From a virus (Duplodnaviria; Heunggongvirae; Uroviricota; Caudoviricetes), in the IMG/VR virus record IMGVR_UViG_2703718798_000006: a stretch of 8,876 nt of DNA; one strand, 5' to 3'. The notes under the pieces were generated by a model. It worked only from the letters and a program-made list of their open reading frames with translations. It searched no databases and was not told the origin of the DNA. Positions 4,047 through 8,427 of the stretch are shown here, one piece after another (position 1 is the stretch's first letter; every line of letters begins with the position of its first letter). The translations under genes were made by a program, and so were the position numbers.

Positions 4047-4280
4047 ATGAGAACAGCCGAATCACCCGGCAGAGAAATAACCGCCAGACCAGCTAACCAT
4101 CATGCGCATATCAGCATGGCCGCAAGAAAAGCCGAGCGTGCACATATCTGCGAATTACTGCGCGAGCTGACCGAGACAGCGAAAGAAAAACACACCTCCC
4201 CGCTGGAAACCTGTTCAGTCATTGAACGACTGATTGCAATGCTCACCAGCCAGGACGAACCGAAGGAGCCCGTACAATGA
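4047..4280 (+). CDS. Hypothetical protein, 77 aa (ORF opens at 4005)
   Basis: ATG 4047 preceded by AGGAG (4035-4039) at 7-nt spacing; the upstream ATG 4005 lies inside a hairpin with no SD. Stop overlaps the exonuclease start (ATGA). Confidence 0.55.
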   Translation: MRTAESPGREITARPANHHAHISMAARKAERAHICELLRELTETAKEKHTSPLETCSVIERLIAMLTSQDEPKEPVQ

Positions 4281-4858
4281 ACCATCTCATGATTGACACC
4301 GAAACACTGGGTAACGGACCGGACGCAGTCATATTCGCGATCGGCGCGGTGTTTTTCGACCCGTTCACCGGAAAACTGGGCAAGCAGTTTGAGAAATTCA
4401 TCGACCCGGTGGATTCAGAACGCAACGGCGGAACCGTCAGTGCAACAACCGCTGTATGGTGGGCCGGACAATCCGTGGAGGCCAGGGCCTGCCTGCGCAA
4501 CGCAGAGGGAACAGAGCTGGCAGCAGTGACCGAATTTCTGGCGTTCATTTCACGCAATATGCATGACGAAAGCCCGGGCAATTCACTGACCATATGGTGC
4601 AAGGGCGCATCCTTCGATTTCCCAATCCTGAGATCCGCCATAAAGCGAACAACCGGAGAAAAAAGTATTCCGTGGTGTTACTGGGACGAGCGCTGTATGC
4701 GTCCGCTTATCGCCATGGCTGAATCAACCGGCTGGAGAATGCCAGGCCGATCAGGAAAAGAGGCTATTGCTCACACTGCACTGGGCGATGCCATTTACCA
4801 GGCAAAGGTCGTGTCAGAAATCTGGCAGCGCTTCACAACGCCATTCCTGAACATATGA
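4277..4858 (+). CDS. DEDDh-type (DnaQ-like) 3'-5' exonuclease, 193 aa
   Basis: SD AAGGAG (4263-4268). Exo I motif MIDTETLG (Asp/Glu), central ...GASFDFPIL..., Exo III motif HTALGDAIYQ (His-x4-Asp), in the order expected for DEDDh exonucleases. Confidence 0.8.
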   Translation: MNHLMIDTETLGNGPDAVIFAIGAVFFDPFTGKLGKQFEKFIDPVDSERNGGTVSATTAVWWAGQSVEARACLRNAEGTELAAVTEFLAFISRNMHDESPGNSLTIWCKGASFDFPILRSAIKRTTGEKSIPWCYWDERCMRPLIAMAESTGWRMPGRSGKEAIAHTALGDAIYQAKVVSEIWQRFTTPFLNI

Positions 4859-4941
4859 GGTGAAGCATGGTCGCCATCCTGAATGTGTGTTGCTGCCCCC
4901 CCCTGAACGTGGAAAGAAAAGCCCGCGCATCGCTGCGTTTA

Positions 4942-4966
4942 TTCCGCAACGGTGTGCGGAATTTTT
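4942..4966 (+). terminator. Rho-independent terminator: 7-bp stem TTCCGCA/TGCGGAA, 6-nt loop, T5 tail
   Basis: Perfect hairpin immediately followed by TTTTT, in the gap between the exonuclease and dam. Confidence 0.55.
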
Positions 4967-5090
4967 CACGCATAAAGCCCCACAACTACCTGGTGATAAG
5001 AATCGGTTTTCGCTGGCGATTACTCAGCAAGAACAACGGGAAGTCATGGGATTTATTAACGCATGAAACCTATAACAAAGAGGCCGCGTT

Positions 5091-6071
5091 ATGAGCAAAG
5101 AACTGTTATCCGGCACACCGCTGAAATGGGTGGGTGGCAAAAGCCGCATCATGAACACACTGAAGGTGCATCTGCCAGAAGCTGACTGCCTGGTTGAACC
5201 GTTCGTGGGTGGCGCATCGGTATTCATGAACACCAGTTACAAACGCTACATCCTGGGTGATTCCAATGGTGCGCTGATTAATTTCTGGCGGGCAGCACGG
5301 GACAACACAGACAGTCTGATCGACGAGGCGAAAACCCTGTTCCTGAACCACAACAACAGGGGTGACTATCTCATCATTCGCGAAACCTTTAACGCAGAGA
5401 ATCATGCCTTCCTGAGTAGCAGAACGGGAATAAGCGACCGCCGTGAACTGCGACTGGCCGCCATGTTTTTGTACCTCAACCGGCACTGTTTTAATGGCCT
5501 GTACCGGGTGAACGGAAAAGGCGATTTTAACGTGCCTTTCGGCTGCTACCGCAAGCCCTATTTCCCTGAGCATGAAATCCGCGCATTTGCAGACAAGGCA
5601 AACAGCACCCGAACGCTGCTTATCCACGCAGATTTTAAGGATACGCTGAACTCTGCCAGTCACCTGTTCGGCATGGGCAACACGCTTTGCGTGTACTGCG
5701 ATCCCCCTTACCTGCAATTCAGTGGCCGGGACAATTTCACCGCCTACGGAAAACCATTCGATGAACACGAGCACGTTCGCCTGAGGGCAGCACTTGACCG
5801 CCTTTCGCAGGAAACGGGCGGCATGACCAGCATCACCATCTCCAATTCCGACACACCGGAAACCAGACGCATTTATCAGGGTTACCGGATGAACTGCATA
5901 CAGGCACCACGCAGCGTTGGCGCAAGAACCCGCGAACCAGCACCGGAAGTTATCGCCACCCTGAGACAGTGCGACGCCTGCGGTCACTATGGCGGTGGCT
6001 ACTGCCCGGACTGCGGACCGGTAACGGGAGATGCAACTTACTGCGTGATGTTTACCCCTGCCAGTACGTGA
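5091..6071 (+). CDS. dam: Dam-family N6-adenine DNA methyltransferase with C-terminal Cys4 extension, 326 aa
   Basis: SD AGAGG at 7-nt spacing. N-terminal LKWVGGK and AdoMet motif FVGGASVF (res 38-45), catalytic DPPY (res 204-207). C-terminal CDACGHYGGGYCPDCG (CxxC-x7-CxxC, nt 5970..6014) not present in canonical Dam as I recall it. GATC specificity not verifiable here. Confidence 0.9.
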   Translation: MSKELLSGTPLKWVGGKSRIMNTLKVHLPEADCLVEPFVGGASVFMNTSYKRYILGDSNGALINFWRAARDNTDSLIDEAKTLFLNHNNRGDYLIIRETFNAENHAFLSSRTGISDRRELRLAAMFLYLNRHCFNGLYRVNGKGDFNVPFGCYRKPYFPEHEIRAFADKANSTRTLLIHADFKDTLNSASHLFGMGNTLCVYCDPPYLQFSGRDNFTAYGKPFDEHEHVRLRAALDRLSQETGGMTSITISNSDTPETRRIYQGYRMNCIQAPRSVGARTREPAPEVIATLRQCDACGHYGGGYCPDCGPVTGDATYCVMFTPAST

Positions 6072-6343: not shown

Positions 6344-6558
6344 TCCAGGAGTCAACCGTCATCCGGTTCACAGCCAACGGCCGCCAGTACGAAGTCGACG
6401 AAAGCCTGATTGACCAGGGCATGACACGCCAGGATTCACGCAATCCTGAGATGCATCACATCCGCCTTATCAACGGTTCTCACTTCTGCGCCACGAACAT
6501 GGAAGAAGTACGCGTGCTGACAGCAACACGCAACGCGGGAGGTAAAGCATGGCCGTGA
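6340..6558 (+). CDS. Hypothetical protein, 72 aa
   Basis: Translationally coupled to the upstream gene; AAGGGG upstream; 3' end overlaps the next gene by 10 nt. Confidence 0.6.
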   Translation: MIQESTVIRFTANGRQYEVDESLIDQGMTRQDSRNPEMHHIRLINGSHFCATNMEEVRVLTATRNAGGKAWP

Positions 6559-6899
6559 TTTATATCGCCGGTCCCATGACCGGATACAAAGACGACAACA
6601 GACTGGAGTTTTGCCTGGCGGACCTGAAGCTTAGGTACGCCGGAAACATTGTTCTTAATCCTGCCGTACTGCCTGACGGATTAAGCCAGCAGCAGTACAT
6701 GAGCATTTGTATTCCGATGCTCATGTGTGCCGATGCCATTTACTTACTGGATGGATGGGAAGAGTCCGCTGGCGCACGGGCTGAGTACGCAATGGCACTC
6801 AAGCTGAACATGCCGGTGTCATTCCCGGAAAATCGGGCGGCCGGCGAAACTGTCGCACAGCTGCTTGGCAAATCAAAAGCCGCACAGGCGACTGAGTAA
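6549..6899 (+). CDS. Nucleoside 2-deoxyribosyltransferase-like (DUF4406-type) protein, 116 aa
   Basis: SD GGGAGG upstream. N-terminal VIYIAGPMTG and later ...DAIYLLDGWEESAGARAEYAMA... match the motif pattern I associate with the NDT-like/DUF4406 fold. Confidence 0.65.
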   Translation: MAVIYIAGPMTGYKDDNRLEFCLADLKLRYAGNIVLNPAVLPDGLSQQQYMSICIPMLMCADAIYLLDGWEESAGARAEYAMALKLNMPVSFPENRAAGETVAQLLGKSKAAQATE

Positions 6900-7337
6900 C
6901 CGACCGGAGATCGAAACATGATTGCGCGAAGAGCTGCCAACCGCCTCACAGGCTTTATTCCAGGCAAGATTAATCATGCACTCCATGATGGGACTGTCAC
7001 TTTCCTCAACAAAGGAGAGGCGCGCAATCATGCATTCCTTACTAATCACATGGCGCTGACTGATAAGGCGCTGGTAACTGACTGCCTGCCATTCAGCCTT
7101 TTCAGCCCTGCGTTCAAAACTGGCAGCCATGCACTGCCAAAGCAGAAACAGAACCACACTGAAGAGTACCAACACAACAAAATCACACAGGACAAACGCC
7201 GCAACACCAACCAGAAAGGCGCTGATTCGCAGAGCAGCAGAAACGCGTCGGTGAAACACACATGTAATACGTTCAAGCCAGTAGCTGTACCACAGGTCAA
7301 AAAGAATGTCGTAATCAGAAGGGAGCTTATCACTCAT
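6873..7337 (-). CDS. Hypothetical two-TM membrane protein, 154 aa, antisense to the early operon (alternative start ATG 7397)
   Basis: Internal ATG (7337) of minus ORF 6873..7673. Two adjacent hydrophobic helices (ISAFLVGVAAFVLC-D-FVVLVLFSVVLFLLW) flanked by basic residues. The overlapping plus ORF 6918..8030 is low-complexity and runs through two terminators. Weak SD (GGGG 10 nt upstream). Confidence 0.4.
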   Translation of the reverse strand: MSDKLPSDYDILFDLWYSYWLERITCVFHRRVSAALRISAFLVGVAAFVLCDFVVLVLFSVVLFLLWQCMAASFERRAEKAEWQAVSYQRLISQRHVISKECMIARLSFVEESDSPIMECMINLAWNKACEAVGSSSRNHVSISGRLLSRLCGF

Positions 7338-7500
7338 CAGAAACACCCCGCGTATGCAGACAATCACCAGTTGCCAGGTGATATTAATTCGCCACATTCT
7401 AACCACATCAGCACGCAACACAAAAACCGCTTGCCAGCGTTCGCCTGGTCGGGTTACAGTTTTCCCGCACCTCATAAAACGGGTGCCGGGATTGCAACCC

Positions 7501-7542
7501 CCGCTGACTACACAAGCGCACAACCGCGCCAGCGGTTTTTTT
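7501..7542 (+). terminator. Strong Rho-independent terminator T1: stem CCGCTG/CAGCGG with internal GCGC/GCGC sub-stem, then T7
   Basis: 6-bp GC-rich outer stem (7501-7506 / 7530-7535) directly followed by TTTTTTT (7536-7542); 4-bp inner stem 7516-7519 / 7526-7529. Confidence 0.6.
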
Positions 7543-7582
7543 GTGCGTACCGCATCGTCACATCTTTTTCGCGTCAGAATTA

Positions 7583-7660
7583 TGGTGGGGCGTACAGGGC
7601 CGACTTCGGTCGGGCCGGGGTCTTGTGTAGCCGGTGGTTGCAACCCTGTACGTCTCACCA
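7583..7660 (+). ncRNA. Candidate structured RNA (sRNA or cis-acting leader/antiterminator) in the 17-bp stem fold
   Basis: 7583-7599 pairs with 7644-7660 over 17 bp including two G-U wobbles (7590-7653, 7588-7655), which are valid only in plus-strand RNA. Enclosed hairpin 7600-7604/7609-7613 has loop TTCG with C-G closing pair (cUUCGg). ORF-free region. Confidence 0.45.
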
Positions 7661-7692
7661 CCCAGAATTGCAACCTCTGGATGGTGAGTTTT
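7654..7692 (+). terminator. Putative intrinsic terminator T2: 7-bp + 5-bp stem (one mismatch), 9-nt loop, T4 tail; mutually exclusive with the 17-bp stem
   Basis: CTCACCA(7654-7660)/TGGTGAG(7682-7688) and CCAGA(7662-7666)/TCTGG(7676-7680), followed by TTTT (7689-7692). The 5' arm is also the 3' arm of the long stem at 7583-7660. Confidence 0.45.
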
Positions 7693-7720
7693 CAAAACTT
7701 ACTACACAAGAGGCCACACC

Positions 7721-7948
7721 ATGGCAAACCGCAAGCAACAGCGCGCCCGCGCTGAGCGTCTTCACATCCACACCGAAATCAACCGCAGACTCCATCGGGC
7801 TGCATCTGTCTCCTTCATCATGCAGTCAAACGTATTACACCGACTTAACGACGGTATCGCTGCCGGGTATTACGCGGCAGTCTTCAGCTATCTGGCCGAA
7901 GACCTGGCAGAACTGCAGGACCTTATCAACCAGCAACACCACCACTAA
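7721..7948 (+). CDS. Hypothetical small basic/helical protein, 75 aa, ending HHH
   Basis: ATG 7721 preceded by AAGAGG (7708-7713) at 7-nt spacing; first gene after the structured leader. Confidence 0.6.
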   Translation: MANRKQQRARAERLHIHTEINRRLHRAASVSFIMQSNVLHRLNDGIAAGYYAAVFSYLAEDLAELQDLINQQHHH

Positions 7949-8016
7949 ACAACATCCTGAAGCCATCCCGCACCCGTGCGCGGGAGGCTTCCGCACGTCT
8001 GTTACCGGAGGTTCTC

Positions 8017-8427
8017 ATGAAGAGCGTTAAGGGACTTTCAGATATTCAGGATTTTTTTAACTGGATGTGGGCAGTGGATCCCCGGCTGGCTTCCCGCCTG
8101 AACGACTGGCACGACTATTACCGCCGCGCCTGTAAACAGGCCGCCAGACACGTCACCACATACGGGGATTTCTCCTTCACCGTTGACGACCGTTACCGCG
8201 TGGACGTGAAAGGTGATGGTTTTGGTTTATTTCACATCAACGGAACCGACAGCACCGCCATCAGTTGGTCGTCGTCAGAGATGACGCTTGTTCTGGAAAT
8301 GACAACGCACAGCGTGGCCGTGAAAGGCATATACACCGCAGAAGACTTTATCGGTGAATATCAGCGCCTTCTCGTGCTGTACCGCGCGGCGTTTCAGGCG
8401 GCGACTGCCGGGGAGTGCGACGCATGA
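8017..8427 (+). CDS. Hypothetical protein, 136 aa
   Basis: ATG 8017 preceded by GGAGG (8007-8011); stop overlaps the next start (ATGA 8424-8427). Confidence 0.65.
   Translation: MKSVKGLSDIQDFFNWMWAVDPRLASRLNDWHDYYRRACKQAARHVTTYGDFSFTVDDRYRVDVKGDGFGLFHINGTDSTAISWSSSEMTLVLEMTTHSVAVKGIYTAEDFIGEYQRLLVLYRAAFQAATAGECDA

Follow-up and report, generated by a model that had tools for sequence, protein, structure and literature searches.

What a temperate phage gains from adding a small cysteine-rich tail to a DNA methyltransferase is the question raised by the locus described here. The stretch analysed (the window) is 8,876 nucleotides of Caudoviricetes DNA from IMG/VR record IMGVR_UViG_2703718798_000006 and comes from a P2-like (Peduoviridae) prophage, whose early region it represents. 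One of its genes encodes a Dam-family methyltransferase whose last 36 residues lie outside the Dam fold. That tail is a portable module found on unrelated early phage proteins and not previously described, and it is at least as constrained as the catalytic core. Compact and strongly selected, the module links the Dam of P2-like phages to RecE and to a set of small early phage proteins without assigned function. What the module does is more tentative; as discussed below, it may serve as a docking handle that takes its carrier to a shared partner.

The Dam core and its tail

The features of the gene on which the argument depends are as follows, in window coordinates.

5077-5083, + strand: Shine-Dalgarno-like AAAGAGG, 7 nt 5' of the ATG at 5091 (read from the sequence)
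5091-6071, + strand: Dam-family DNA (adenine-N6) methyltransferase gene, 326 amino acids (aa) plus stop (open reading frame list, PF02086, TIGR00571, E. coli prophage DNA)
5121-5960, + strand: Dam core, aa 11-290, with the catalytic and DNA-binding domains (phmmer against PDB entries 2g1p and 4rtj)
5196-5225, + strand: S-adenosylmethionine (AdoMet)-binding motif I, EPFVGGASVF, aa 36-45 (aligned to E. coli EPFVGAGSVF)
5700-5711, + strand: catalytic motif IV, DPPY, aa 204-207 (from the sequence)
5970-6014, + strand: four-cysteine element C294-x2-C297-x7-C305-x2-C308, CDACGHYGGGYCPDC (from the sequence)
6015-6053, + strand: second half of the module, GPVTGDATYCVMF, aa 309-321, in which G309, G313, T316 and Y317 are invariant
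5970-6053, + strand: the whole portable module, aa 294-321 (NF007259, phrog_20376, tblastn, profile search and E. coli K-12 RecE coordinates)

The original prediction, made from the letters alone, described an intact Dam core with its AdoMet motif and DPPY, and the family models bear this out. PF02086 matches aa 13-267 with an E value of 1.6e-53 (182.5 bits against a Pfam cut-off of 22), and the NCBIfam model TIGR00571 gives 227 bits against a cut-off of 114.85. The best solved relative is E. coli Dam (2g1p; phmmer against the PDB, E 7.5e-51), with query residues 11-290 aligned to Dam residues 8-267. P37, F38, V39 and G40 of the FxGxG-type motif I, like D204, P205, P206 and Y207 of motif IV, are invariant in an alignment of 21 homologous sequences. 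In all of this the enzyme itself is of a known kind: phage Dam genes are common, the Peduoviridae Dam is annotated as such in RefSeq prophages, and E. coli prophages carry the DNA at 95% identity with the gene labelled 'DNA adenine methylase'. It belongs to the same fold-level family as the host enzyme (the D12 class, or alpha group, of N6-adenine methyltransferases), yet its score of 218.6 bits against the host-Dam equivalog NF008152 falls short of the cut-off of 441, which makes it a member of a phage subfamily rather than a host-dam orthologue or a second copy of the chromosomal dam.

Conserved contacts predict the target site. In the published structure of E. coli Dam with DNA, GATC is contacted by K9, Y119, N120, L122, R124, P134 and Y138, and the corresponding window residues are K12, F134, N135, L137, R139, P149 and Y153. 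Six of the seven are identical and the change of Y119 to F134 is conservative, so GATC specificity is expected. No restriction endonuclease was detected among the neighbouring genes (a ParE-like open reading frame (ORF), a DnaQ-type exonuclease, small ORFs and a DUF4406 gene), and the Dam is therefore an orphan, like host Dam, and not half of a Type II restriction-modification pair.

The protein was said to be some 50 residues longer than E. coli Dam. It has 326 residues against 278, though the tail supplies only about half of the excess: three residues are added at the N-terminus and 20 as internal insertions, and 36 residues rather than 11 follow the last aligned position. In other words, the 11 C-terminal residues of E. 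coli Dam are replaced by a 36-residue tail holding a four-cysteine (Cys4) module, into which none of the PDB Dam sequences matching the window protein reaches. The CxxC-x7-CxxC motif reported at 5970-6014 reads directly from the DNA, with a TGC codon for C294 at 5970, another for C308 at 6012-6014 and G309 next in frame. The two knuckles are C294-D-A-C297-G and C305-P-D-C308-G. So regular a motif goes far beyond what chance would give. Both the appended tail, lying beyond the Dam fold, and the orphan status of the prophage enzyme are supported.

The tail is neither absent from homologues nor poorly conserved in them. It is kept in all 96 full-length proteins (at least 300 aa) among the 120 best matches, at identities of at least 49%; these come from Escherichia, Klebsiella, Citrobacter, Enterobacter and Raoultella. 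Twenty-one Dam homologues, the most distant at 50% identity, share without exception C294, C297, G301, G303, C305, P306, D307, C308, G309, G313, T316 and Y317. Divergence was counted by the Nei-Gojobori method over six genes, as the proportions of nonsynonymous (pN) and synonymous (pS) differences. When the window gene is compared with three distant phage genes that carry the module, the tail has a pN of 0.17-0.24 at a pS of 0.67-0.88, and the core a pN of 0.37-0.40; among module-bearing genes overall, tail pN is 0.11-0.24 and pS 0.65-0.88, so that synonymous sites are saturated. Moreover, the codons used for the invariant cysteines, glycines and prolines differ between homologues. Saturated synonymous sites, low pN and differing codons together place the selection on the peptide and not on the DNA, and on this codon analysis conservation at the DNA level, as a recombination linker or regulatory site, was rejected.

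Tail-bearing Dam proteins occupy the matching place, in a like gene layout, in the Peduoviridae phages phiT5282H (Enterobacter), SW3 (Salmonella), ST16-OXA48phi5.4 (Klebsiella) and SEN5 (Salmonella). The first three are about 45-52% identical to the window protein, and their genes lie at the same point of the early operon, upstream of the replication endonuclease, and encode 317-327 aa with the same Cys4 tail. The tail is annotated in none of these phage records. The SEN5 Dam (locus L009, 3188-4171) retains the first CxxCGR knuckle, but where the others have CPDCG-GDATY it bears a different, longer tail with 11 cysteines, CAQCCPGIAACEEGWSFDCCGNCDICEPSDNPETW; tails rich in cysteine appear to be swapped among the Dam proteins of this clade.

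Many of the homologues carry a further element at the very end. In 62 of the 96 tail-bearing Dam proteins the chain closes with FD..E[GPAS]F-COOH, 15-19 residues past the module tyrosine, as in GAFDDLEAF, GAFDGAEGF and GFDPAKGCETQEPF (homologues P0023-P0120; loci L006 3176-4147 and L007 3167-4150). This resembles the C-terminal docking tip of the single-stranded DNA-binding protein SSB, DFDDDIPF, a likeness that suggests use of the whole tail region for protein contacts. Most of the Peduoviridae phage Dam proteins have this peptide. The window protein does not, nor do its close E. coli relatives; these proteins end in TPAST, TSAHP or GNH.

A portable module on unrelated phage proteins

The first sign that the tail is not peculiar to Dam came from profile matches. 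The only non-Dam profiles to match it did so over 30-38-residue stretches of RecE-type models: positions 524-556 of the RecE model NF007259 match window residues 290-322, with 21.1 bits against a cut-off of 1269, and positions 255-285 of the exonuclease family phrog_20376 match residues 291-321. Since the NF007259 match is confined to residues 290-322, the module is all that the window Dam and RecE have in common, and the window Dam is not a RecE. A tblastn search of phage genomes with the 43-residue tail returned the Dam genes of P2-like phages and the RecE genes of Rac-like and Stx phages, and translation of the RecE gene of Rac-SA53 confirmed the module. In phage Tritos the protein with the motif has a DnaQ-type exonuclease at its end in place of the RecE nuclease, and an Aeromonas phage protein carries, internally, a variant with the spacing C-x6-C-x2-C-x2-C.

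The module consensus over 56 variants is (R/K)-x-C-x-x-C-G-x-x-G-G-G-x-C-P-D-C-G-x-V-M-G-D-A-T-Y-x-x-M-F, some 30 residues in all: a CxxCG and a CPDCG knuckle joined by a glycine-rich loop of seven residues, then an invariant G..TY and a conserved M-F pair. Three cysteines are invariant, and the fourth is exchanged for one four columns downstream in the C-x6-C-x2-C-x2-C variant.

A word-indexed search with the tail profile gave only short proteins and fragments, and the architectures were taken from an exhaustive search of 1.84 billion representative proteins with a profile of 35 columns, which yielded 239 matches at E <= 1e-3. Genuine matches are single and span the whole profile. The carriers fall into several groups: Dam proteins; RecE-type proteins with an Exonuc_VIII N-terminal domain, the module and a PD-(D/E)XK nuclease; proteins with the same N-terminal domain and the module followed by an Rv2179c-type exonuclease (P0166, P0176 and P0179); proteins made of the module and a nuclease alone; and many small proteins, 79-190 aa long, that have the module at their very C-terminal end or, in P0212 alone, at the N-terminal end. 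Apart from the module, the carriers belong to unrelated families (PF02086, PF06630, PF12684, PF16473, phrog_6680, phrog_10472, phrog_27803 and phrog_21008), of which the four PHROG families, found in small carriers, have no assigned function. The small carriers are early proteins of lambdoid and Mu-like phages; one (P0132) is encoded among the early genes of a Mu-like prophage, with DUF3164 and GemA on either side.

The highest-scoring matches of the exhaustive search, with E values down to 4e-44 (P0139-P0162 and similar proteins), were rejected as homologues. They are surface-type giant repeat proteins of up to 4279 aa, free of cysteine, that match columns 12-34 or 19-34 only and whose scores are sums of up to 20 partial matches. 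Their repeats, of the form YTYTFSGWTPE..VTGDATYTATF (the Listeria-Bacteroides repeat type; PF09479 in P0141), resemble CPDCGPVTGDATYCVMF, and the likeness is judged to be a local resemblance summed over repeats rather than homology.

In a pattern scan of one genome per species the true module was confined to Enterobacterales (including Plesiomonas) and Oceanisphaera, two metagenome bins aside. These bins ('Proteobacteria' and 'Roseburia') carry a RecE 99% identical to that of E. coli, and the contig in the 'Roseburia' metagenome-assembled genome is presumably contamination. Searches of phage genomes add one Aeromonas phage and one Actinobacillus phage. A supposed carrier from 'Actinomycetes' (L032) proved to be a generic zinc ribbon lacking GDATY.

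The module appears to have gone unnoticed on all of these proteins. No Pfam or NCBIfam domain model matched it on any carrier tested, PHROG annotation does not cover it, and it is described nowhere in the searchable literature on RecE, the module motif and P2-like Dam. That said, small cysteine knuckles are frequent in phage proteins and domains are commonly shuffled.

RecE (exodeoxyribonuclease VIII of the Rac prophage) is the best known of the carriers. In the E. coli K-12 protein the module occupies residues 517-544, with cysteines at 517, 520, 528 and 531 and the conserved segment running to F544; the window module that aligns with it reads QCDACGHYGGGYCPDCGPVTGDATYCVMF. Pfam covers only residues 2-178 and 615-850 of this protein and leaves the module region without a domain. 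Everything other than the module differs between RecE and the window Dam: RecE has the Exonuc_VIII N-terminal domain and the PD-(D/E)XK nuclease, and its module is internal, unlike the terminal one of Dam, flanked by long acidic linkers of low complexity and placed some 70 residues before the nuclease domain that has been crystallised. Truncated forms of RecE in wide use keep the nuclease domain (564-866) and lack the module. RecE is biotechnologically important, and the module falls in a part of it that has had no assigned function for decades.

Two side observations touch on these carriers. The domain PF16473, which makes up a stand-alone exonuclease in the window, also appears in lambdoid phages, fused there behind a RecE N-terminal region and the Cys4 module in proteins annotated 'exonuclease VIII' (L003 1387-3858; L014-L016). 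In the window prophage the module sits on Dam, a neighbour of the stand-alone exonuclease. Separately, the Rac prophage of E. coli K-12 encodes, two genes upstream of recE, the 56-aa YdaE (ydaE; L010 6839-7009), annotated 'zinc-binding protein'; its cysteines are spaced differently, as C-x4-C ... C-x3-C, and have no relation to the module of Dam and RecE.

Fold and role of the module

The four cysteines most likely hold one metal ion, probably zinc. The original prediction called the tail zinc-ribbon-like, and as a motif label this is reasonable: like the small Cys4 ribbons and knuckles of TFIIB, RanBP2/NZF and rubredoxin-type proteins, the module has two CxxC knuckles, the second of the form CPxCG, followed by a strand-like V-x-GD segment. 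It differs from them in its GDATYxxMF extension, which has no counterpart there, and in a glycine-rich spacer of just seven residues. The fold is another matter, and a zinc ribbon is plausible at most, given that no significant match to one came from Pfam, the PDB or Foldseek. Pfam returned nothing for the window tail at E values up to 1, and only sub-threshold DZR and TFIIB matches for other carriers. A profile search of the PDB found no solved structure with the module; the nearest sequence, MtrI (9qtr_i), KCEACGRESDTKYCNDCGKVM, has an E value of 0.011 and a likeness at the level of the motif only, and the TFIIB ribbon segment CPECGLVVGD comes in at a nonsignificant 0.11.

Structure prediction was of limited help. 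The AlphaFold model of the full-length protein, built on the 21-sequence alignment, reached a mean predicted local distance difference test score (pLDDT) of 55.6, with the tail near 30, and was too poor to be used in the fold search. The module alone (40 residues, 56 sequences) gave a pLDDT of 58, with isolated beta-bridges around the knuckles and, at low confidence, a helix from D314 to F321. Such a helix would tentatively put Y317, M320 and F321 on one face. Foldseek found nothing significant for this model in the PDB (best E 1.9); in its low-ranking list small Cys4 domains prevail (RanBP2/NZF fingers, ribosomal zinc ribbons and rubredoxin-like domains), which is suggestive at most.

The favoured reading, held tentatively and with a little less than even confidence, is that the window gene encodes an orphan, GATC-type Dam with a metal-stabilised docking module that recruits its carrier to a shared partner. 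The gene would be transcribed as part of the early or replication operon, where it follows the cox-like switch gene and precedes the replication endonuclease, and its product most likely methylates GATC sites of the phage, and of the host, during lytic replication. Past the Dam fold it carries an independent mini-domain of some 30 residues, two knuckles that most likely hold the metal followed by the invariant GDATYxxMF, which temperate phages of Enterobacterales and their neighbours attach to Dam, RecE, DnaQ-type exonucleases and several small proteins alike. The mini-domain may act as a tethered protein-docking handle that neither reads DNA nor alters GATC specificity, and the partner would most plausibly be a replication or repair hub protein of the host. 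A host partner is likelier than a phage partner because the P2-like, lambdoid and Mu-like carriers have few genes in common.

Several features argue for contacts with protein. From the first cysteine to the final phenylalanine the net charge of the 56 variants is between -4 and 0, with a mean of -1.9; this acidity and the lack of conserved basic residues make binding to the phosphate backbone of DNA unlikely. The acidic linkers around the RecE module and the SSB-tip-like ending of 62 Dam homologues point the same way. The variety of carriers, small proteins without a DNA domain among them, disfavours any role specific to methylation. It had been proposed that an appended ribbon could alter DNA targeting or mediate protein interactions. 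The first option is disfavoured by the retained GATC-contact residues, by a module with no net positive charge in any of the 56 variants and by its presence on unrelated proteins; the second fits these properties better. A beta-clamp-binding motif of the QL[SD]LF type was considered for YxxMF and rejected, the spacing and the leading residue being wrong.

A number of points weigh against the docking reading. That the module binds metal, how it folds, that it docks and what kind of partner it has are all things that we infer, and the GATC specificity is a prediction from conserved residues. The low pLDDT values of the tail and the module are compatible with a fold that depends on metal, and also with disorder, and the Foldseek search brought up no significant relative. 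The SSB-tip-like ending is missing from the window protein itself. Finally, all the fusion partners of known function are DNA enzymes, which fits a role with nucleic acid as well, and an arginine or lysine stands just before the first cysteine in 49 of the 56 variants.

These last two points lead to the rival that survives best, in which the tail is a small nucleic-acid-binding zinc ribbon lending Dam extra grip on DNA (for processivity, or at forks, ends or single strands) and doing the same for RecE and the exonucleases. Dam, the PD-(D/E)XK nuclease of RecE and the DnaQ-type exonuclease do all act on DNA, and CPDCG-x-V-x-GD resembles the second knuckle and following strand of TFIIB, at the nonsignificant E value given above. 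We nonetheless regard this as unlikely: the module is never positively charged, neither lysine nor arginine is among the residues that it conserves on its exposed face (D, D, T, Y, M and F), many carriers are small and have no recognisable DNA domain, and the GATC-reading residues of the core are unchanged.

A little less likely still is a module that works without an external partner, as a metal or redox switch or as a stability or turnover tag limiting the persistence of early proteins. Oxidation or loss of metal would readily disturb four cysteines set around a glycine-rich spacer, the usual place of the module at the extreme C-terminus is a common site for degradation signals, and MtrI, the nearest match in the PDB, is a small Cys4 protein responsive to oxygen stress. 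Yet the module is internal in RecE and in the Aeromonas phage protein and N-terminal in P0212, the invariant GDATYxxMF surface exceeds the needs of a cysteine switch, and MtrI itself, as far as the titles of the papers on it tell, works by docking onto a protein complex. A functionless passenger, whether a fragment spread by mosaic recombination or a conserved junction in the DNA, would suit the position of the module, which lies where genes end or domains meet in phage regions of high mosaicism, but is essentially excluded and close to refuted by the codon and divergence analysis, with a tail that is tighter than the catalytic core at saturated synonymous sites, varied codons at its invariant cysteines, glycines and prolines, and retention in every full-length homologue of the set.

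To return to docking, a bolder form of that reading is possible but doubtful: an unrecognised portable docking domain, added by temperate phages of Enterobacterales to Dam, RecE, DnaQ-type exonucleases and small host-takeover proteins, that delivers them to a single target in the host, located at replication forks or the ends of DNA. Were it true, the RecE N-terminal region would have its first functional element to be defined, and the better performance of full-length RecE than of the nuclease domain in linear-linear recombination could be explained. Should the module be a common address label, one pull-down might show which host machine is targeted, and the finding could suggest a role for many orphan early genes and guide the design of RecE-based cloning tools. 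If it is merely a stabilising metal knuckle, the gain is a minor improvement in annotation.

The prophage early region

The remaining genes of the window place the Dam gene among the early functions of the prophage.

117-1124, - strand: integrase
within 1179-1661, - strand: CI-type helix-turn-helix repressor
1624-2148: cox-like gene
4277-4858, + strand: stand-alone DnaQ-type 3'-5' exonuclease, Rv2179c-like (PF16473, E 2.5e-50)
4867-5094, + strand: 75-aa ParE-like ORF whose stop overlaps the Dam ATG (ATGA, 5091-5094) (PF24732, E 1.2e-18; phrog_1525)
6549-6899: DUF4406 gene

Small ORFs without a known family lie between the cox-like gene and the exonuclease, and two more small ORFs separate Dam from the DUF4406 gene. 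The same region is found in E. coli chromosomes at 93-95% identity; at the locus examined it adjoins dmsA, with the replication endonuclease downstream.

The overlapping stop and start codons make translational coupling of the ParE-like ORF and Dam likely. An ORF of about 70-75 aa also lies directly 5' of Dam in phiT5282H, ST16-OXA48phi5.4 and SEN5 (loci L006, L008 and L009), and the small ORF and Dam are probably a conserved, translationally coupled pair.

Toward the end of the window, at 6873-8030, long ORFs overlap on opposite strands, one of 266 aa on the minus strand and one of 370 aa, of low complexity, on the plus strand. Around 7400-7900 there are matches of 81-86% to P2-like phages, P88-like ones among them, in which the annotations vary ('derepression protein', 'transcriptional regulator' and hypothetical), and the counterpart of 6873-8030 in a related E. 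coli locus is annotated with only a 175-aa minus-strand ORF and small ORFs.

GATC sites are mildly depleted in the window, which has 20 where shuffles preserving dinucleotide composition have 31 +/- 5 (in 199 of the 200 shuffles the count was 20 or more). This mild under-representation occurs in a prophage that encodes its own predicted GATC methylase, and no conclusion is drawn from it.

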